This document shows, piece by piece, positions 416 to 57,982 of a stretch of DNA of 64,000 nt. A program made the translations under genes and the position numbers. This stretch comes from Escherichia phage rV5_ev147. Each line of letters begins with the position of its first letter. Position 1 is the first letter of the stretch. Location of the stretch: sequence record LR597647; one strand, given 5' to 3'. The notes under the pieces are model-generated. The model was not told the origin of the DNA, made no database searches, and saw only the letters and a program-made list of their open reading frames with translations.

Positions 416-766
416 CTAACCAGTTGTTGACATTCGAATAACTTCTTCTGGTGGCAAAACTTTGGAAAATGTGCATCTTTTACCTCTCCCTTGTGTGGAT
501 ATTTCAACCACTCCTGCACATTCTAAAGTTTTAACGCACGCTGCTGCTTTTGTTTTCTTTATCCCAATATCTGCTGCAATTTTCCTTGTGCTGGGCGTGA
601 AGCGTGAATTTCCTCCAAGCTTATACCAGTTGTGCAGGTAGCAGTATACGATCTTGTCATATAAGTCAAGAACAACAACCTCACCAGTTGTGTCATTCAA
701 AACTTTTGACATAGACAGTATTTCAAGGGGGACTTTAAGATATAGCAGCTTATCCCCATCTTTCAT
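416..766 (-). CDS. Putative helix-turn-helix DNA-binding protein
   Basis: ATG at 766 with AGGAG upstream; segment STRKIAADIGIKKTKAAACVKTLECAGVV resembles an HTH; lies next to the palindromic site array. Confidence 0.4.
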   Translation of the reverse strand: MKDGDKLLYLKVPLEILSMSKVLNDTTGEVVVLDLYDKIVYCYLHNWYKLGGNSRFTPSTRKIAADIGIKKTKAAACVKTLECAGVVEISTQGRGKRCTFSKVLPPEEVIRMSTTG

Positions 767-813
767 ATCTCCTGATTCTCCTTGTGTGGCAATTTTCTTT
801 AAAATAGCAGGGA

Positions 814-1368
814 TTACTCCACGCTGTCAATAGCAAGACTCATTGCAATACGGTATGCCTCTTCTAATGGTAAGAGTCTCCCCCACACATCCCAACCGAC
901 ATCAAACTGCCTGCCAAACAACTGCTGTGTGGTTCCGTGAGCATGACCGAACAGTTGGACCGATCCGTGAGGCTTTCTGTTCCACTTTGCAAACTGGTAA
1001 TGGCTCATACAGATCAAATTCTTGTTGTGGCGAAGCTCGTAATAATCTACAACCTCATGACCGAACTCTTTCATAATTCTGACAGTCGTCCTTGTGTCAT
1101 GGTTACCACGAACAAGAATAATATGTCCGTTCAACATATTTAGAACATCTGGGAGCAATTTGTTAATATTCTTATCATTAGTGCACGCAATATCTCCTAA
1201 GTGAAACACAGTGTCTGCAGGTGACACAACAGAGTTCCACTTGGTGATGATCCCCGCATTCATACTGTCAAGATTGTGATCATACTGAGATCTGTGTTTT
1301 TGACATGAGTCAAACTCCATGACCCGCTGGTGGAGAAAGTGTGTGTCGCTTGTTACAAAGTATTTCAT
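814..1368 (-). CDS. Calcineurin-like metallophosphoesterase (Ser/Thr phosphatase or polynucleotide 3'-phosphatase type)
   Basis: Start refined to ATG 1368 (MKYFVTSDTHF) with GAGGA SD; motifs DTHF, GDIACTND, GNHD typical of metallophosphoesterases. Confidence 0.65.
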   Translation of the reverse strand: MKYFVTSDTHFLHQRVMEFDSCQKHRSQYDHNLDSMNAGIITKWNSVVSPADTVFHLGDIACTNDKNINKLLPDVLNMLNGHIILVRGNHDTRTTVRIMKEFGHEVVDYYELRHNKNLICMSHYQFAKWNRKPHGSVQLFGHAHGTTQQLFGRQFDVGWDVWGRLLPLEEAYRIAMSLAIDSVE

Positions 1369-1375
1369 ACATTCC

Positions 1376-1786
1376 TCATTTAAGTTTAATGCAGTTTTTA
1401 AGCTGGCGTTCCATACGATCCACAACCCTGTCTGGAACATCATGAATGCTTTTACTACCATGGCGGTTTTCAACCACGATTACGGTATAACTATACCCAT
1501 GACTGATCGCCATGTCAATATATTCTTGCACATATTTTTCTTTTGTAAATGTATTACTTACCACGATACGGTCGTATCCCATACGCATCATATCTTCTAC
1601 GTTATCTTTGCACCATTTTGCTGCAAGTGTTACTTTACTTGCATCCCAGTTGTAATTTCCATCATCGTCGTACCAGAACATGTCGTTCTCAAAATGTGGA
1701 TACAGACCTTCTAAAGATAGCGCACTTGCCAGTGTTGATTTGCCAGACCCTGGTAGACCACGCACGATATATAGCATTTTAGACAT
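1376..1786 (-). CDS. P-loop kinase, polynucleotide-kinase-like
   Basis: Start refined to ATG 1786 (GGAGGA SD); Walker A GLPGSGKST near N-terminus; stop overlaps the SD of the phosphoesterase gene. Confidence 0.5.
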   Translation of the reverse strand: MSKMLYIVRGLPGSGKSTLASALSLEGLYPHFENDMFWYDDDGNYNWDASKVTLAAKWCKDNVEDMMRMGYDRIVVSNTFTKEKYVQEYIDMAISHGYSYTVIVVENRHGSKSIHDVPDRVVDRMERQLKNCIKLK

Positions 1787-1886
1787 AGTAATCCTCCGTT
1801 TTAATTTCAACGATAGTATACCTAACTGTTTTGTTAATTTCAAGTGTTGACACTAGGTTATTTGTGTGGCAGGATAGACTGACAAA

Positions 1887-2822
1887 ATGACAAATGAGGA
1901 ACGTATGATGAAGTATTTTAATGCAGACGACCTAGTTGACAAAGGTCTTGTAACCAGCAGATATCACCCAGACCTTGGGTTAAAGATCTATAAATATGCC
2001 AGAAAAGTATTCTACAACAACTTATGGCATTTGTCTCCTCGATTACTGGAGTGCCGAGGCATTGTTGTCGGTAATGAAGGAAATGTTGTGGCATGGCCCT
2101 TTACAAAAGTGTTTAACTTGGGAGAAAATTCCACCAACCTGCCTGACAATAAGCTTGTGACGGCGGTAGAGAAAAAGAACGGATTCCTTGGTGTGGTGTC
2201 ATCTCATAAAGGTGAACTATTGTTCTCAACAACCGGGTCTCTTGATTCTCCATATTGTAACCTTGCAAAGGAAACCATCCAGGAGCAATGTGGTAATTTA
2301 GATCTTATCAAGAAGGTTATGGGCAATGAAAATATGACATTCATGTTTGAAATTTGTCACCCCTCAGATCCGCATATTGTTCAGGAAGATCATGGCGCAT
2401 ATTTGATAGGTTGCAGATATAATGATTCTGGAATAATGCTACCAGAAGCAGCTTTAGATGGGATTGCCAAATACCTTGGTGCAAAACGTCCTCACACTGT
2501 GCGTGAAATTCCGTTCAGTTATGCAAAAGAATTAGCTGCAGAAACAAGAGGTGAAGGGTATATGATTCGTAAGCCTTACTACCCTTATGATCTGCAGCTG
2601 AAGATTAAGTCTCCATACTATCTGGCACGGAAGGCCGTAATGAGGGGTAAAGCTTGGAAGATTTGGGATGATGATATCTTTAAACGTGTTGACGAAGAGT
2701 TTTACGGCATGGTAAACTTCATTCGTAACAACTACACAGAGGATGTATGGAACTGCCTCCTGGAGCAGGAACGCCGTGAGATACTCGATTACTATTTCCA
2801 CAACGAGAACTATATGCAATGA
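1887..2822 (+). CDS. Putative RNA ligase (Rnl2-like nucleotidyltransferase)
   Basis: Candidate motif I EKKNGF, motif IV EGYMIRK, motif V LKIKS; divergent from the kinase/phosphoesterase pair. Confidence 0.45.
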   Translation: MTNEERMMKYFNADDLVDKGLVTSRYHPDLGLKIYKYARKVFYNNLWHLSPRLLECRGIVVGNEGNVVAWPFTKVFNLGENSTNLPDNKLVTAVEKKNGFLGVVSSHKGELLFSTTGSLDSPYCNLAKETIQEQCGNLDLIKKVMGNENMTFMFEICHPSDPHIVQEDHGAYLIGCRYNDSGIMLPEAALDGIAKYLGAKRPHTVREIPFSYAKELAAETRGEGYMIRKPYYPYDLQLKIKSPYYLARKAVMRGKAWKIWDDDIFKRVDEEFYGMVNFIRNNYTEDVWNCLLEQERREILDYYFHNENYMQ

Positions 2823-3169
2823 AGAAGTTGATTGTGTGGCTAGATGACTTGAGAGATCCGTCAAAGTACGGGCTCCAAGACGCTGTTTGGCTAAAGAATT
2901 CCTCCGAGTTTATAGATTTTATTAACGATAATAGAAAGCTCTACAGACGCGTTTCTGAGTGGCATATGGACAACGACCTTGGAGAGGTATTCGAAGGGTA
3001 CGATTGCCTATCTATGTTGGAGGAAAAATTTGTATTTGGTAAGCCTCCTGTAGTTGACAACGTGAAGATTTTCGTGCATACTTCTAACCCATCAGCGGCT
3101 CGTAAATTCATGCTTGCAGCTGACTCGTTTAAAAAGTTTGGAATAGAGATTAAACAAAACATCTACTGA
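2819..3169 (+). CDS. Hypothetical protein, first gene of the Sir2 operon
   Basis: ORF overlaps the upstream stop (ATGA); 9 bp before the Sir2 gene; no motif recognised. Confidence 0.45.
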   Translation: MKKLIVWLDDLRDPSKYGLQDAVWLKNSSEFIDFINDNRKLYRRVSEWHMDNDLGEVFEGYDCLSMLEEKFVFGKPPVVDNVKIFVHTSNPSAARKFMLAADSFKKFGIEIKQNIY

Positions 3170-3177
3170 GGACACTT

Positions 3178-3939
3178 ATGCGACGACTGATTATTATCTC
3201 CGGTGCTGGTTTGAGCGCTGAATCTGGTATTCCCACTTTCCGATCTGGTAGCACTGCAATGTGGGAGAATTTCAGCATCGATGAGGTGTGCAACATCCAC
3301 ACCTTTGCCAAGAACTACTATAAGGTGCATGACTTTTACAATGCACGTCGTGTAGCTTTAGGCAGTGTTGAGCCTAACCTTGCACATCTTCGGATCGCTG
3401 AGTGGTATTCCCGCTGGTCTGGTCGTGTGATCAACCTTACCACCAATGTAGATGATTTGCTGGAGCGTGCTGGTGTAAAACATGAAGATATTTTACATGT
3501 CCACGGGTATTTGCCAGAAATAGTCTATGAGGACGATGAAGGAAGTGACGTCATTAAGGACATTGGATACTCTGAGGTAGACGCAGGAAAGTATACCTGG
3601 GTTAAGCCTAATGTGGTGTTCTTCGGAGAAGTAGCTCCGAAGTATACAGACATGTATGACCTGTTGACTTCTCTTACGAGCAATGATATGGTTATCCTTG
3701 TAGGGTGCTCCAACACAGTTATCAATTTTAACTGGGAGCTATTCCCTGCCTGCAATAAGGGAACCAAACTACTGATCGTTAATAAATACGACTCACAGCA
3801 TCTAGAGGAGAATGGCATTTCACGTAGTGATATTTACCAGTATGAGGATCGTGGCATCCCAGTTTGGTTTAACGGTGCGGTTGATGCCTTCTCTGATAAA
3901 ACATTCATTGAGACTGTAGAAAACTTTATGGAACTTTAA
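3178..3939 (+). CDS. SIR2-family NAD-dependent deacylase / ADP-ribosyltransferase-like protein
   Basis: Canonical sirtuin motifs GAGLSAESGIPTFRS, TTNVDDL, HVHG; no CxxC zinc module seen. Confidence 0.7.
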   Translation: MRRLIIISGAGLSAESGIPTFRSGSTAMWENFSIDEVCNIHTFAKNYYKVHDFYNARRVALGSVEPNLAHLRIAEWYSRWSGRVINLTTNVDDLLERAGVKHEDILHVHGYLPEIVYEDDEGSDVIKDIGYSEVDAGKYTWVKPNVVFFGEVAPKYTDMYDLLTSLTSNDMVILVGCSNTVINFNWELFPACNKGTKLLIVNKYDSQHLEENGISRSDIYQYEDRGIPVWFNGAVDAFSDKTFIETVENFMEL

Positions 3940-3952
3940 AAGGAGACCTTTA

Positions 3953-4666
3953 ATGCTGAATACTAAATTAATTGACAACCTGGAAAAACTATCCCAACCT
4001 GAAAACTACCTTTGGTCTGCCAACTGGGTGGAAAACTGGAACCGTGTGGCAGCTAAAGTGAAAAAATCATACACACCATTCGAATTACAGCTTAGCTTCA
4101 TTGAGGAAGAGTTCAATGAAGTTTTGGAAGAGCTGGAGAAAGGTGATGGTGGAGATCACCTGCTAAAGGAGGCCTGCGATCTTCACGTTGTCACAAGTTA
4201 TGCAGCTTATCTTGTTAATGACAATCACGAAAAGTGGTCAAACCTGTTTGATAATCCACGAGGTCTTAAGTTCAAGATCGGTGAGTTCTATGATACACTG
4301 ATCGCTGCGAAAAACACCTCTAAGCAAAGAGCATCCGCTTACCGCTTAGCAGAGTTGTCAACAGCTTTGCTGTTCCAGCTTCGCGGCGATGTGTGCGGGA
4401 TGATGCGTAAGGTTCTCAAATCGAATGACAGCAAGTTTGCACGGGTCAACCATCTACGGTATTCACACGGTGCCAGTGCAGATATGCCTGCTGAACAACT
4501 CATCGAGTTGGAGATTAAAGATCTTGAGCGACGCTTTGATGGTCGATATGAAGGTTTTGTTGCTAAGGAAGAATTCTACAACGGTAATAAAGTTATCATA
4601 TTCCTTGACAGTAAAGGTAAGATCATGAAGCCTTCGAGCTTCAAGGATGTAACAGAGTATATTTAA
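3953..4666 (+). CDS. Putative MazG-like nucleotide pyrophosphohydrolase
   Basis: EEEFNEVLEELEK...EACDLH resembles the EExxE...ExxD MazG motif; 14 bp after Sir2. Confidence 0.35.
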   Translation: MLNTKLIDNLEKLSQPENYLWSANWVENWNRVAAKVKKSYTPFELQLSFIEEEFNEVLEELEKGDGGDHLLKEACDLHVVTSYAAYLVNDNHEKWSNLFDNPRGLKFKIGEFYDTLIAAKNTSKQRASAYRLAELSTALLFQLRGDVCGMMRKVLKSNDSKFARVNHLRYSHGASADMPAEQLIELEIKDLERRFDGRYEGFVAKEEFYNGNKVIIFLDSKGKIMKPSSFKDVTEYI

Positions 4667-49045: not shown

Positions 49046-49243
49046 TTATTTGCCTTTGTGGCGGTATCGTTCCGCCTGTCGTTCACGTTCCAAAAGCAGG
49101 CCCGGTAATTTGCGATCATAATGATTCCGCCAGATCTTCCCAAATCTTTTTGGCTTATTCAGTTTATTGTTGCGCTGGCGGCGTTCCGGCAGCTCTTCGG
49201 AAGCATGAGATCGCTTTACAATCTTCTCAAAATTAATCTTCAT
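49046..49243 (-). CDS. Hypothetical basic protein
   Basis: Start refined to ATG 49243 after AAGGGGGG; Arg/Lys-rich. Confidence 0.4.
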   Translation of the reverse strand: MKINFEKIVKRSHASEELPERRQRNNKLNKPKRFGKIWRNHYDRKLPGLLLERERQAERYRHKGK

Positions 49244-49297
49244 ATATTCCCCCCTTGCTAACTTCAATATTGGCCTGAATAGCCCGGATACGGCGCT

Positions 49298-49585
49298 TTA
49301 TAACTTCCTGATCTGTGTGATCGTATCCCAAAAGTCTACGATTTTTGCGCCTCCAGCCTTTAGGCGGTATAGTGTTTCTTGCATCTTGTAAGCCGGGATC
49401 GGTCGCGGTGTTACCTGGTCGCCCTTCTCATTCTTGTACTTGATAATATAGTCTTCATTGTCGTTGAATACCCAAAACGGGTATTCTGTAAGGGCGTTGC
49501 TATCTTTTTCGTTTTTAGATTGGATCTTGTTTACAATTAAAGCCGTAGCAATAGCGCCAATAATAAAACTTGCCCCGCTGATCAT
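49298..49585 (-). CDS. Membrane-anchored protein
   Basis: Start refined to ATG 49585 after AAAGGAGAAAG; N-terminal TM ISGASFIIGAIATALIV. Confidence 0.45.
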   Translation of the reverse strand: MISGASFIIGAIATALIVNKIQSKNEKDSNALTEYPFWVFNDNEDYIIKYKNEKGDQVTPRPIPAYKMQETLYRLKAGGAKIVDFWDTITQIRKL

Positions 49586-49660
49586 GTACTTTCTCCTTTC
49601 ATTGTATTGATAAACTATCTTTATAGATGGCCCTGCTACCAGGACCACCGAAAAAACAGC

Positions 49661-55040: not shown

Positions 55041-55499
55041 TCAACACTTTTTGTACTCTACTACAACCACATCAATATCTGTGGTTGCAAGATTAATTAC
55101 ATCTTCTACATGTTCCCACTTTAGACCGCCAATACCGCATCCGATTTTAGGAATGTAGAACGGCAATGACACACCTTTGAATACCTCGTTGACTCGCTCA
55201 AAACCTTTCATGATTGAGAAGTATTCAGCATTGGGCCCTGGGTAGAACTGGGTATACAGGTTGATTCCATATACGACCCTGTTCTTGGCAAAATGCTCCC
55301 AACAAGAAAACATACCCAGCTTGTCTAGATTCCCATAAGCAGTCTCTTTGTCGGCTGCCAGTGCTTGAGGGAACTCACGGGCAATATCTTTCGCTATGCC
55401 TGCACCCATTGTGTGAAAGCAGTTACAACCGTGGATCATGTGGCCTGACCCTTTCTTGAAAATGGAGATTAGATCTCCCTTTACAGTATCAATAATCAC
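55041..55499 (-). CDS. Macro-domain protein (ADP-ribose binding/processing)
   Basis: GDLISIF...HGCNCFHTMGAGIAKDIAREFP and C-terminal IPKIGCGIGGL resemble macro-domain motifs; start set to GTG 55499 after GAGGAG, ATG alternatives lack SD. Confidence 0.55.
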   Translation of the reverse strand: MIIDTVKGDLISIFKKGSGHMIHGCNCFHTMGAGIAKDIAREFPQALAADKETAYGNLDKLGMFSCWEHFAKNRVVYGINLYTQFYPGPNAEYFSIMKGFERVNEVFKGVSLPFYIPKIGCGIGGLKWEHVEDVINLATTDIDVVVVEYKKC

Positions 55500-55914
55500 G
55501 GTATTCCAGCTCCTCTTCTGCAATTTCCAAAAACTCATCCCAACCCTGTGGCATATTTGAGTTGCCGAAGTGGCTTTCGTAGTAGAGATTTTTACCACTT
55601 GGAAGGTAGAAATCTGTTACCTCATAGAATCCACAATCGTCGCACTCACCTTCTTCAAACTTGGCCTCAACCTTAATACCGAGGAAGGTGAAAAGTTTAT
55701 GGATATCTTCAGTTTCGAACTCCCAGTGAATGTTGTTTTCCGCATCGGTGTAGAACTGGATCAGCAGACCATTGTCCAGTTTACCAAAATACTCTGTGAA
55801 GTAACTTCCTTCCCAGAAATCTTTATGACAAATAATATCCATGCGTTTGCCCATAATAATGGTGTGAGCGTTTTGGGCATCGTCACGAATCAGTTTTGGC
55901 ATTTCATAGATCAT
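55489..55914 (-). CDS. Hypothetical protein
   Basis: 141-aa ORF overlapping the macro-domain gene start. Confidence 0.4.
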   Translation of the reverse strand: MIYEMPKLIRDDAQNAHTIIMGKRMDIICHKDFWEGSYFTEYFGKLDNGLLIQFYTDAENNIHWEFETEDIHKLFTFLGIKVEAKFEEGECDDCGFYEVTDFYLPSGKNLYYESHFGNSNMPQGWDEFLEIAEEELEYRDY

Positions 55915-56755: not shown

Positions 56756-57982
56756 TTAGAATGGGATGTCATCATCAAAGGCGTACTGTGCTGGATTCTG
56801 ATCCATCGGGTCATCTTCCTCGTCATTTACAGGAGGAGCGTCTACAGTGTTTTGCTGTGGAGCTGCTTCCTGTTTGGCAGCTTGAGGTTCTTGATGGTCA
56901 GTGGACTCAGCACCGTTCTTGATCCAATCGTACAACGGCTCAGCCAGATTAGTCAAGACATCTTTTGCTTCTGCAGTAATTGCCGCTGCAAAATCATCAA
57001 CTTTCGTTTTCTTGTCAATACGGCGACAAGCGTTCAACACCGCATTACCGACACTGGCACCTACTTCATCTTCAGTTCGGTTGGTGGCTTGAGCATACTC
57101 TTTCTTAAGCTCAATGGTGACTACGTGCAGTGTTTTAGCCACGCTTAGTGGGTCATCCACTTTAAACCCGCGATCCAGGATGATCTGCAAAGCATTGATG
57201 CTATGCCCCGTCTCTACACCAATAGGGTCGTAAGAGGATTTACGCTTGCCACCAGAGCCTTGAGTGCCGTTCTCTGCCTTAGGTGGATAGGCTTTGAAAC
57301 CACTGATAATGTTTCCGGTGTCTTTGTCAACAATGGCTGCAACACGACCACCTACTACCAGGTCTTTAAGCTGCTCATCAGTGACAACCATAGCACCTTC
57401 GCCAATCTTGTGGTCATTAACAGTAACCACGTTGCCAACAATCTGAGTCACATCACCATAGATGCGTAAAACGTCCTGATTGGCATTCTGCTGAGGTTTC
57501 TGCTTCTGGCCTTGTGATTGTGCACCTTGTTGCTGTTTTTGCTGTTGAGTCGCTGCTGGGGCCTCTCCTGCACCCAGCTTAACCATTTTAGCCAGTGATC
57601 CTTTATAATAGGTCTTACCGTTATGCTCGTTTGCCTTCAAAGGGATATTTACGATCCATCCCGGCGTTACGGTTTCCCACTTGTCATCAATTTTAACAGA
57701 GACAGAGTCTTGATGACCAGGTTTAAGCAGCTTATCACCCATACTGATCCAAACTTCTTCACCACCTTGAAGCAGGTTATCAGAGGAATCCAGTTCAGAA
57801 ATCAGTAAAGAGATGGTGTGGCTGGATTCAATTTTCTTACCTTGCCACACAGTGGTTTTAATACCTGTTGTAGGATCAGCACCTTTGATAGGTTTGATGC
57901 TGACACGTTTAATCATGCCGTGAGCCAGTAAAACAGTTTCACGCGGATTCATCGGGTTAGCAAATTGTTGAATAACGCTCAT
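56756..57982 (-). CDS. Putative single-stranded-DNA-binding protein with host-SSB-like C-terminal tail
   Basis: 408 aa; Gln-rich low-complexity linker; terminal residues FDDDIPF match the E. coli SSB tail; AAGGAGA SD; N-terminal OB fold not verified. Confidence 0.5.
   Translation of the reverse strand: MSVIQQFANPMNPRETVLLAHGMIKRVSIKPIKGADPTTGIKTTVWQGKKIESSHTISLLISELDSSDNLLQGGEEVWISMGDKLLKPGHQDSVSVKIDDKWETVTPGWIVNIPLKANEHNGKTYYKGSLAKMVKLGAGEAPAATQQQKQQQGAQSQGQKQKPQQNANQDVLRIYGDVTQIVGNVVTVNDHKIGEGAMVVTDEQLKDLVVGGRVAAIVDKDTGNIISGFKAYPPKAENGTQGSGGKRKSSYDPIGVETGHSINALQIILDRGFKVDDPLSVAKTLHVVTIELKKEYAQATNRTEDEVGASVGNAVLNACRRIDKKTKVDDFAAAITAEAKDVLTNLAEPLYDWIKNGAESTDHQEPQAAKQEAAPQQNTVDAPPVNDEEDDPMDQNPAQYAFDDDIPF

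Follow-up and report, generated by a model that had tools for sequence, protein, structure and literature searches.

A stand-alone macro domain protein of an rV5-type coliphage as a likely counterpart of the T4 anti-DarT factor Tk.4

The usual partner in sirtuin-macro operons is a macro domain of the MacroD type, yeast Poa1p is an ADP-ribose-1''-phosphate phosphatase, and human TARG1 acts on proteins and O-acetyl-ADP-ribose as well as on DNA. Orphan phage macrodomains were published as anti-DarTG2 factors in 2025–2026, for T4 and for PhiKZ. In T4, a transposon screen run on hosts with DarTG2 gave tk.4 as its single significant match, and a clean tk.4 knockout was DarTG2-sensitive; the gene has been renamed adfM, for anti-DarT factor macrodomain (bioRxiv 10.1101/2025.11.20.689424). 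This T4 evidence is genetic and comes from a 2025 preprint. In vitro, PhiKZ gp104, independently named AdfM, clears DNA of ADP-ribose that DarT2 has added (PMC13309987), and in both phages the macrodomain is needed for growth on DarTG2 hosts (bioRxiv 10.1101/2025.11.20.689424; PMC13309987). In bacterial SCO6735 the position of the catalytic lysine is taken by Gln; the enzyme hydrolyses thymidine-linked ADP-ribose on DNA and rescues E. coli from DarT (PMC9411070). Hydrolysis of thymidine-ADP-ribose (T-ADPr) is common to DarG, TARG1 and SCO6735, and among the human hydrolases of the panel only TARG1 showed T-ADPr activity that was comparably robust (PMC12879935). Iyer et al. 2022 (PMC9503650), arguing from context, concluded that the targets of phage macro domains are mostly soluble derivatives of ADP-ribose.

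The gene studied here lies on the minus strand of a stretch of 64,000 nucleotides from Escherichia phage rV5_ev147 (LR597647), hereafter the window, to which all coordinates refer. The gene and its immediate surroundings comprise the following features.

55041..55499, minus strand: macro domain protein CDS, 152 aa, stop codon included; homologue of rV5 gp204, Tk.4 and AdfM
55515-55510, minus strand: Shine-Dalgarno-like GAGGAG, 10 nt upstream of GTG 55499-55497, read from the sequence
55489..55914, minus strand: upstream ORF of 141 aa, rV5 gp205, PHROG 8157 (unknown function)
56280-56252 and 56065-56037, minus strand: two sigma-70-like promoter matches, 10/12 each, upstream of the gp205-macro pair; consensus matches only

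No stop interrupts the frame between 55598 and the terminal stop at 55041 (ORF scan), and reading through from GTG 55499 gives a single-domain, stand-alone protein of 152 aa that carries HGCNCFHTMGAGIAKDIAREFP at residues 23–44 and IPKIGCGIGGL at residues 116–126, with no adjacent DarT toxin. The earlier note had taken GTG 55499, with its GAGGAG, as the best-supported start, and the homologues and public annotation bear this choice out. We place the start at GTG 55499 because the ATG codons of T4, a Krischvirus and a Klebsiella T4-like phage align exactly with it. The N-termini (MI..) of the homologues coincide, strand beta-1 of the structural model starts at residue 2, and the CDS limits are identical in two public annotations (VVA46354.1 of LR694165.1; rV5 gp204 of NC_011041). 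Two alternative starts, ATG 55538 and GTG 55598, were ruled out by the homologue alignment; the former is the sole upstream in-frame ATG and is CTG in rV5.

Since the gp205 stop overlaps the macro gene start by 11 nt, the two genes are probably co-transcribed and translationally coupled. As a functional partner, gp205 was considered and rejected: its PHROG is of unknown function, it has no Pfam match, the T4 tk.4 region contains nothing homologous to it, and no functional link to the macro gene was found. The ORFs flanking the macro gene have no Pfam matches either and are small phage ORFs with unknown-function PHROGs only. Further upstream of the promoter matches, the same scan gave a terminator-like hairpin at 56740-56719, and sigma-70-type promoters are annotated throughout the leftward gene block in the rV5 RefSeq record.

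The gene is not new. It is already annotated publicly as a macro domain protein or Tk.4 homologue, named "tk.4 phosphatase" in the rV5 RefSeq and "T4-like protein with Macro domain, Poa1p_like" in LR694165.1; the term 'phosphatase' that PHROG and RefSeq use was transferred by homology. The earlier note had likewise read the product as a macro domain and had proposed profile and structure searches as a check, and both uphold the reading. The Pfam Macro profile (PF01661) scores 25.9 bits against a gathering score of 22 (E = 1e-5), and many homologues carry a precomputed match to it; PHROG 335 matches with E = 8e-60, and the family profile matches PDB macrodomains with E = 1e-12 to 6e-16. The AlphaFold (AF2) model (pLDDT 93.7, pTM 0.89) has the three-layer alpha/beta/alpha macro fold, for which Foldseek returned probability 1.0 and TM 0.70–0.76 to TARG1, Poa1p, DarG and SCO6735. 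The top Foldseek matches, namely TARG1, Poa1p (rank 2), the DarG proteins of Thermus aquaticus (Taq) and M. tuberculosis (Mtb), SCO6735 and Bacteroides BT1257, are the same set of proteins on which the sequence and profile matches fall. The product of 55041-55499 is therefore a macro domain, by a match far beyond chance.

The DarG models also match, over the macro part only (NCBIfam antitoxin_DarG, E = 6e-12; PADLOC DarG, E = 8.5e-13). An identity with the DarG antitoxin itself was rejected: the NCBIfam model (NF048014) gave 45.5 bits against a cut-off of 250 and aligned at profile positions 2–144 of 338 only, and the protein, ending at residue 152, has no C-terminal DarT-binding domain, no darT neighbour and no catalytic Lys.

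Of 50,697 phage records, 2826 contain the family; most belong to large lytic phages that infect Gram-negative bacteria. Proteins at least 80% identical to the present one occur in 100 records, from Vequintaviruses, and that of the rV5-like phage Bas59 is 99% identical. Within the window, the family profile HMM matches this ORF only, so that no second macro gene was found. A Pfam scan for ADP-ribose enzymes, covering the approximately 30 larger uncharacterised window ORFs (115 aa and above), found no NADAR, ART or Nudix domain; its single match was a cREC domain adjoining the Sir2 gene discussed below. An NADAR protein, AdfN(Bas60), has been reported in some Vequintavirinae, and none of its type was seen among these ORFs.

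The closest characterised homologue is T4 Tk.4, with 39% identity and 67% positives (E = 4e-44) over residues 1–150 of the macro protein and with the motifs HGCNCFHTMG, NLYTQF.PGPN.EY and IG.GIG in common. A Krischvirus Tk.4, whose gene directly follows vs as T4 tk.4 does, is 68% identical to the macro protein. Alignment to solved macrodomains delimits three elements of the active site.

55392..55433, minus strand: ADP-ribose binding loop 1, residues 23–36, HGCNCFHTMGAGIA, with H23, invariant N26 and the GxG-type MGAG
55248..55262, minus strand: NLYTQ, residues 80–84, placed by alignments to Mtb DarG, TARG1, SCO6735 and BT1257
55125..55151, minus strand: glycine-rich diphosphate-binding loop 2, PKIGCGIGG, residues 117–125

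These motifs (HGCNC...MGAG, NxYTQ and IGxGxGG) are invariant or near-invariant in 60 aligned homologues. Residues N26, N80, Y82, T83, Q84, P117, G120 and G122 are invariant and G125 is near-invariant, as are, at one level or the other, the glycine-rich loops MGAGIA (31–36) and IGCGIGG (119–125), which align with the loops of solved macrodomains. Loop 1 maps to H24-V25-C26-N27 of SCO6735, with N26 aligned to SCO6735 N27 and DarG N22; the counterparts of loop 2 are PRIGCGLAGG in SCO6735/BT1257 and PPLGVGNGG in Mtb DarG. Where TARG1 and DarG have their catalytic lysines (K84 and K80, respectively) and SCO6735 its essential Gln85, the macro protein has Q84; in Mtb DarG, PTKK aligns with YTQF, with Q84 in place of the lysine (Taq K80). 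This glutamine at the catalytic position probably places the mechanism of the T4/rV5-type AdfM closer to SCO6735 than to DarG. The accessible part of the T4 preprint makes no mention of Gln in place of Lys at this position (bioRxiv 10.1101/2025.11.20.689424).

Taken with the published activities, the T4 homology and the active site lead us to regard the macro protein, with reasonable though not firm confidence, as a catalytically competent stand-alone ADP-ribosyl-glycohydrolase of the ALC1-like class to which TARG1, DarG and SCO6735 belong. This would make it the counterpart of T4 AdfM in Vequintaviruses and an eraser of DarT2 marks. By analogy with its T4, SCO6735 and PhiKZ relatives, the rV5-type protein would have the same activity and role. 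Removal of host-made DNA ADP-ribosylation, as by DarT, had been one of several functions suggested in the earlier note, and through Tk.4 homology and the SCO6735-type active site it has become the best supported.

The anti-DarT2 role might be played out as follows. The macro gene is probably made early, because the leftward small-gene block from which it is expressed carries host-type sigma-70 promoters. Infection would activate host DarTG2, whose DarT2 would ADP-ribosylate thymidines (in TNTC motifs) of phage ssDNA and so block replication. The macro enzyme would then bind the ADP-ribose via loop 1 (HGCNC..MGAG) and loop 2 (IGCGIGG) and cleave the ribose-thymine bond, giving back a replicable template. 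Catalysis is probably lysine-independent and of the SCO6735 type, with Q84, held by N26, positioning the distal ribose for a water-mediated cleavage; in this it would be unlike DarG and PhiKZ AdfM, both of which use lysine.

The state of the active site also bears on whether the protein is an enzyme at all. A macro domain that only binds ADP-ribose, acting as sponge, reader or stoichiometric DarT inhibitor, has precedent, since some macro domains bind without cleaving (PMC9503650) and catalytically dead SCO6735 still inhibits DarT, which has been termed interaction-inhibition (PMC9411070); the classical catalytic lysine is, moreover, absent here. However, SCO6735 variants Q85A, Q85E and N27S lost all or nearly all activity (PMC9411070), and both catalytic residues are invariant in the phage family as Q84 and N26, which argues for selection on catalysis. 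In PhiKZ AdfM, too, mutating the asparagine equivalent to N26 lowered activity (PMC13309987). We consider a purely non-catalytic binder extremely improbable.

Several observations count against the anti-DarT2 reading. The protein shares only 39% identity with T4 Tk.4, and the TARG1/DarG/SCO6735 class of macrodomains is promiscuous; the promoter matches upstream are matches to the consensus only. Furthermore, the DNA activity of SCO6735 has been put down in part to its electropositive groove and to a loop that is longer and carries lysine (PMC9411070). The macro protein, unlike that groove, has no net positive charge (pI 6.5; 16 K+R vs 17 D+E). Our literature search found no published report of a DarTG2 challenge of Vequintavirinae, and the accessible part of the HIDEN-SEQ source apparently describes no such challenge of its Bas54 library.

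This near-neutral charge, atypical for a DNA-binding enzyme, would suit counter-defence against a different ADP-ribose-based immunity, in which protein or RNA marks, immune signals or toxic metabolites are the target instead of DarT2-modified DNA. TARG1 and SCO6735 de-ADP-ribosylate proteins as well (PMC9411070), phage macro domains have been argued to act mainly on soluble ADP-ribose derivatives (PMC9503650), and the very wide spread of the family could mean a target broader than one toxin-antitoxin family. Nonetheless, the sole functional data on the closest characterised homologue, tk.4, concern DarTG2, on which it was the only significant screen match (bioRxiv 10.1101/2025.11.20.689424). 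Among human hydrolases, robust activity on thymidine-ADP-ribose is found in the TARG1 type only (PMC12879935), and this class is therefore specialised for that bond. For RNA marks in particular, T4 carries Tk.4 and is nonetheless strongly countered by CmdTAC, an ADP-ribosyltransferase of mRNA; that modification is therefore not neutralised by Tk.4. On balance, we judge such an alternative immune target unlikely and retain the anti-DarT2 eraser as the preferred reading.

A further question is whether the macro protein works with the sirtuin of the same phage.

3178-3939, plus strand: Sir2 ORF, Pfam SIR2, E = 3e-27

The earlier note had placed a Sir2 gene here, about 50 kb away on the other strand, which the Pfam match and the measured distance of 51.1 kb confirm. 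Its proposal that Sir2 and macro domain could give the phage a writer/eraser pair fared differently: the genes lie on opposite strands, in different gene blocks, and are distributed independently, so that the pairing is not supported. The Sir2 gene sits in a cluster of kinase, phosphoesterase, RNA ligase 1 (Rnl1), cREC, Sir2 and MazG-like genes. Iyer et al. 2022 (PMC9503650) report exactly such a cluster in 'Escherichia phage V5', predict it to be an RNA-repair module and assign its sirtuin to a distinct clade for RNA repair. The best PDB matches of Sir2 are SIRT5, CobB and archaeal Sir2 deacylases, and among the best 60 of its 91 matches no PDB entry is named as an ADP-ribosylating (macro-linked) sirtuin. 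The macro domain, for its part, is TARG1/DarG/SCO6735-like by profile and Foldseek, not of the MacroD type.

The distribution of the macro gene is independent of Sir2. Phage records number 2826 for the macro gene and 1025 for Sir2, and at least 1801 macro-carrying records are therefore without a Sir2 match. In whole-genome tblastn searches, T4 has the macro gene but neither Sir2 nor cREC, and T5 has a 58%-identical Sir2 but neither the macro gene (also by the family profile HMM) nor a cREC homologue; T5, lacking the macro gene, is strongly restricted by DarTG2 (bioRxiv 10.1101/2025.11.20.689424), in keeping with the anti-DarT2 reading. A Sir2-macro operon pairing was ruled out by distance, strand, gene context and this phyletic pattern.

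The two genes might still be linked in trans. Vequintaviruses keep both of them (Sir2 at least 90% identical in 118 records, the macro gene in the 100 given above), and the phage carries an Rnl1-cREC-Sir2-MazG-like cluster predicted to yield ADP-ribose phosphates. In such a scheme Sir2 would be either a deacylase or part of an NAD-dependent RNA repair along with Rnl1, cREC and the kinase, and the macro protein, like Poa1p or OARD1, would turn the products (ADP-ribose-1''-2''-cyclic phosphate, ADP-ribose-1''-phosphate or O-acyl-ADP-ribose) into ADP-ribose. Poa1p is indeed among the top fold and sequence matches and shares the IH-x-CNC...GxG N-terminal motif, and the family is publicly annotated as 'phosphatase' or 'Poa1p-like' (PHROG, RefSeq, LR694165.1). 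Residues H23 and S30, altered in the deposited Poa1p mutant structures, presumably correspond, in our own Poa1p numbering, to H23 and T30 of the macro protein, but at the position of invariant Q84 Poa1p would have Ser. Against this clean-up of Sir2 metabolites also stand the separation of the genes, the at least 1801 records with the macro gene alone, and the two genomes just described: T5 has Sir2 without the macro gene, and T4 has the macro gene without Sir2 or cREC, its phenotype there being DarTG2 resistance (bioRxiv 10.1101/2025.11.20.689424). In addition, the cluster has candidate processing enzymes of its own, namely cREC, a metallophosphoesterase and the MazG-like protein (PMC9503650). 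We therefore hold the clean-up function to be quite unlikely. Very doubtful is a combination of two jobs, whereby the protein would erase DarT2 marks and also serve in trans as the last enzyme of the phage Sir2-cREC-Rnl1 NAD-dependent RNA repair, clearing ADP-ribose-1''-phosphate or O-acyl-ADP-ribose from Sir2; if it were true, Sir2 and the macro protein would be functionally linked in trans despite the 51 kb between their genes. In a milder variant, the Gln-type phage AdfM proteins would be lysine-independent, SCO6735-like enzymes that additionally block DarT2 by direct binding.

Under the preferred anti-DarT2 reading, rV5-like phages, which are used in O157 typing and are therapy candidates, probably come equipped with a counter-defence against DarTG2, and this bears on host-range prediction. 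The phage Sir2 belongs to a separate, predicted RNA-repair module, described for V5 in 2022 (PMC9503650).

Among the known systems, T4 Tk.4 is the nearest in kind. Both are stand-alone macro domains of approximately 150 aa with the same invariant motifs and Gln in NLYTQ at the catalytic-lysine position; both genes have a start overlapping the upstream stop (4 nt for T4 vs/tk.4, 11 nt in the rV5 type) and lie in a small early-type gene block of a large lytic coliphage. They differ in that T4 belongs to Straboviridae and its gene follows vs, whereas the rV5-type gene, in Vequintavirinae, follows gp205 and uses a GTG start.

The DarG2 macrodomain (Thermus aquaticus 5M31/5M3E, M. tuberculosis 5M3I) has the same fold (TM ~0.74–0.76) and, with PhiKZ AdfM, the conserved loop-1 Asn, the GxGxGG loop 2 and the same proposed substrate. 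PhiKZ gp104 AdfM is likewise a phage-encoded orphan eraser, in its case with activity in vitro (PMC13309987). Both have a catalytic Lys (DarG K80, PhiKZ AdfM K78) where the rV5/T4 type has Gln, and DarG, unlike the rV5-type protein, has a C-terminal DarT-binding domain and an adjoining darT.

SCO6735 (PDB 5E3B) and BT1257 (2FG1/2AFC) match by profile with E = 2e-14 and 6e-16 and share the Gln-type active site, H-x-C-N ... N-x-x-x-Q ... IGCG.xGG. The former, from Streptomyces coelicolor, cleaves thymidine-ADP-ribose on ssDNA and neutralises DarT (PMC9411070). Both are bacterial chromosomal genes with approximately 24% identity to the macro protein, and SCO6735 is DNA-damage-inducible, has Val25 in place of the Gly24 that is invariant in the phage family, and has, besides its electropositive groove, a mobile loop that is longer and carries lysine, as opposed to the near-neutral phage protein.

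Human TARG1/OARD1, a top Foldseek match, removes thymidine-ADP-ribose from DNA (PMC12879935); its catalytic dyad K84/D125 corresponds to Q84/G124 here. Yeast Poa1p shares the N-terminal IH.CNC...G.GIA motif (IHGCNC in the macro protein, IHSCNC in Poa1p) but acts on ADP-ribose-1''-phosphate, and TARG1 and Poa1p, unlike the phage protein, are eukaryotic housekeeping enzymes.

On the minus strand the reading frame is open between 55598 and a stop codon at 55041, and translation from GTG 55499 yields a protein of 152 aa that holds both motifs quoted in the earlier note. Two public annotations have the same CDS limits and, together with the translation, confirm the ORF at 55041-55499: LR694165.1 labels the product 'phage T4-like protein ... 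with Macro domain, Poa1p_like family', and RefSeq rV5 labels gp204 'tk.4, phosphatase'. The start codon had been called ambiguous, with GTG 55499 favored because of a GAGGAG Shine-Dalgarno sequence, which lies 10 nt 5' of it. Comparison with homologues settles the start at this GTG. An ATG occupies the aligned position in three other phages (T4, a T4-like phage of Klebsiella and a Krischvirus), rV5 reads CTG in place of the in-frame ATG further upstream (55538), and the N-termini coincide across 60 aligned homologues. There is an 11-nt overlap between the start and the stop of the 141-aa ORF that precedes it.

The assignment of the product as a macro domain, proposed from sequence motifs, is solid. 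It matches Pfam Macro with 25.9 bits (gathering threshold 22) and PHROG 335 with E = 8e-60. A single-sequence search already matches the solved macrodomains of SCO6735, Mtb DarG, Poa1p, TARG1 and BT1257, and a 60-homologue profile matches the same structures with E = 6e-16 to 1e-11. An AlphaFold2 model from a 59-sequence alignment (pLDDT 93.7, pTM 0.89) retrieved TARG1, Poa1p, Taq DarG, SCO6735, Mtb DarG and BT1257 as the top ranks of a Foldseek search against the PDB, at probability 1.0 and TM 0.70-0.76. The protein belongs to the ALC1-like/TARG1-like class, not to the MacroD class.

By tblastn, the family occurs in 2826 of 50,697 phage records, mostly from large lytic phages that infect Gram-negative bacteria, among them T4-like, Felix O1-like, Cba120-like, phAPEC8-like and rV5-like phages. 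T4 Tk.4 shares 39% identity over the whole length (E = 4e-44). The closest relative outside Vequintavirus is the Tk.4 of Krischvirus (RB49-like), at 68% protein identity (55041-55499 compared with 601-1056 of Krischvirus Skers); other T4-like Tk.4 proteins share only 39-46%. The Krischvirus gene lies directly 3' of vs, the same place as tk.4 in T4. Because the first 22 or so nt that follow the start codon are identical to Krischvirus DNA, and several neighboring rV5 genes also have RB49 homologues (rV5 RefSeq), the sequences suggest gene exchange between RB49-like and rV5-like phages.

Escherichia phage rV5_ev156 (a Vequintavirus, LR694165.1) matches about 3 kb around the gene with 100% identity; for rV5 and many relatives the figure is 96-97%. 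The remaining window equals LR694165.1 base for base, except for a single-base deletion at 49328 (ATCTCC in LR694165.1, ATCCC in the window). The deletion affects a CDS of 117 codons labeled 'Phage protein' (LR694165.1 113233-113586; window ORF 49298-49648, minus strand) and shifts the frame near its 3' end, leaving a 116-aa ORF and a separate 32-aa ORF (49233-49331); the frameshift is either genuine or a product of sequencing or assembly. A 408-aa ORF at 56756-57982 (minus strand) belongs to PHROG 4477, of unknown function, and has a Q/K-rich low-complexity center. Its region matches rV5 in two pieces, since rV5 carries at the 3' end of the homologue an additional endonuclease gene of about 620 bp, gp208, probably a mobile homing endonuclease, which is absent from the window. 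Finally, 16-25 records named 'Campylobacter phage' (e.g. MG065652, MG065654) are 93-100% identical to the window of this E. coli Vequintavirus, which suggests a wrong host label or contaminating coliphages.

Downstream of rIIB, a helicase and DNA polymerase comes a long array of small leftward genes, to which the macro gene belongs. A promoter scan of this block returned the following minus-strand sites:

59707-59679, minus strand, perfect sigma-70 consensus (TTGACA, 16-17 nt spacer, TATAAT)
56740-56719, minus strand, terminator-like hairpin
56280-56252, minus strand, sigma-70-like match upstream of the macro gene
56065-56037, minus strand, sigma-70-like match upstream of the macro gene
54411-54384, minus strand, perfect sigma-70 consensus (TTGACA, 16-17 nt spacer, TATAAT)

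The sigma-70-like matches, together with the sigma-70 promoters annotated in the same block of rV5 RefSeq, make early expression of the gene plausible. The region as a whole holds 20 promoter-like sites, against 11.6 +/- 3.5 in shuffled controls; this excess and the perfect consensus sites fit early transcription of the leftward block by host RNA polymerase.

The earlier note also proposed that the macro protein and a phage Sir2 could form an ADP-ribose writer/eraser pair. The Sir2 ORF (Pfam SIR2, E = 3e-27; PHROG 2162) sits in a compact predicted RNA-repair/NAD cluster at 416-4666:

416-766, HTH regulator
814-1461, metallophosphoesterase
1376-1786, nucleotide/polynucleotide kinase
ending at 2822, RNA ligase 1
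2819-3169, cREC domain protein (PF20274, E = 4.5e-15; public label only 'Phage protein')
3178-3939, plus strand, Sir2
3953-4666, MazG-like pyrophosphohydrolase (PHROG 671)

Iyer et al. 2022 (PMC9503650) described the same sirtuin neighborhood, with 'Escherichia phage V5' as prototype and a predicted KptA-like action. Among the matches listed (best 60 of 91), the closest solved relatives of Sir2 are SIRT5/CobB-type deacylases. In Sir2 the NAD-binding motifs GAGLSAESGIPTFR and TTNVDDL are retained, as are PNVVFFGE and the catalytic His of HVHG. About 33 residues separate this His from PNVVFFGE, a region that the SIRT5 alignment skips, and none of them is a cysteine, so the usual sirtuin Cys4 zinc module appears to be missing.

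The proposed pairing is unsupported. The two genes lie 51 kb apart, on opposite strands and in separate gene blocks, and their distribution among phages speaks against coupling: the macro gene is found in 2826 phage records and Sir2 homologues in 1025, T4 carries Tk.4 while searches of its complete genome found neither Sir2 nor cREC, and T5 carries a Sir2 of 58% identity while its complete genome yielded no macro gene. As T4 has Tk.4 and no Sir2, the experimentally supported function of the family runs in a Sir2-less phage. A Poa1p-like clean-up acting in trans in rV5, on ADP-ribose-1''-phosphate or O-acyl-ADP-ribose, is improbable in our judgment.

That supported function is counter-defense against DarTG2, a toxin-antitoxin system in which DarT2 modifies thymidines in ssDNA. 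In a 2025 preprint (10.1101/2025.11.20.689424), a screen of T4 transposon mutants on DarTG2 hosts had tk.4 as its single hit, and a clean tk.4 knockout made T4 DarTG2-sensitive; the gene was renamed adfM. In vitro, PhiKZ gp104, independently named AdfM, strips DNA of the ADP-ribose added by DarT2 (PMC13309987). Guanine modification by DarT1 is handled by NADAR proteins (AdfN). In a hydrolase panel, robust thymidine-ADP-ribose cleavage was limited to DarG, TARG1-type enzymes and SCO6735 (PMC12879935). T5, in whose whole genome no macro gene homologue was found, is strongly restricted by DarTG2. Among the phages that these studies describe as challenged with DarTG2, there appears to be no Vequintavirus. 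The gene had been annotated before, and the role of its family is in the literature.

Taken with the alignments, we consider its likeliest function, with fair but not full confidence, to be removal of the ADP-ribose that DarT2 places on DNA, as an AdfM-type eraser with a Gln-type, SCO6735-like mechanism. ADP-ribosylated protein or RNA, or soluble ADP-ribose signals, are possible though less likely targets, because enzymes of this class are promiscuous and this one is close to neutral (pI 6.5); for RNA, however, CmdTAC, an mRNA ADP-ribosyltransferase, still strongly defends against T4, a Tk.4 carrier.

In the active site and elsewhere, the family alignment has 14 residues that never vary (numbered from GTG 55499): G24, N26, C27, M31, G34, A36, D50, N80, Y82, T83, Q84, P117, G120 and G122. 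The invariance of N26 and Q84 makes a purely non-catalytic role unlikely. Mapping onto solved relatives identifies IGCGIGG as the diphosphate loop, and the NLYTQF motif recurs in T4 Tk.4. H23-G24-C25-N26 aligns to H24-V25-C26-N27 of SCO6735, and Q84 to its Gln85, to TARG1 Lys84 and to DarG Lys80. SCO6735, a Gln-type enzyme, strips thymidine-linked ADP-ribose off DNA and rescues E. coli from DarT; its activity is abolished in Q85A and Q85E and nearly so in N27S, and its authors proposed a water-mediated, lysine-independent mechanism (PMC9411070). Since N26 and Q84 align to these mutation-sensitive residues, the phage family retains what matters in the Gln-type enzyme, whereas it lacks the catalytic Lys of both DarG and PhiKZ AdfM (N23/K78).
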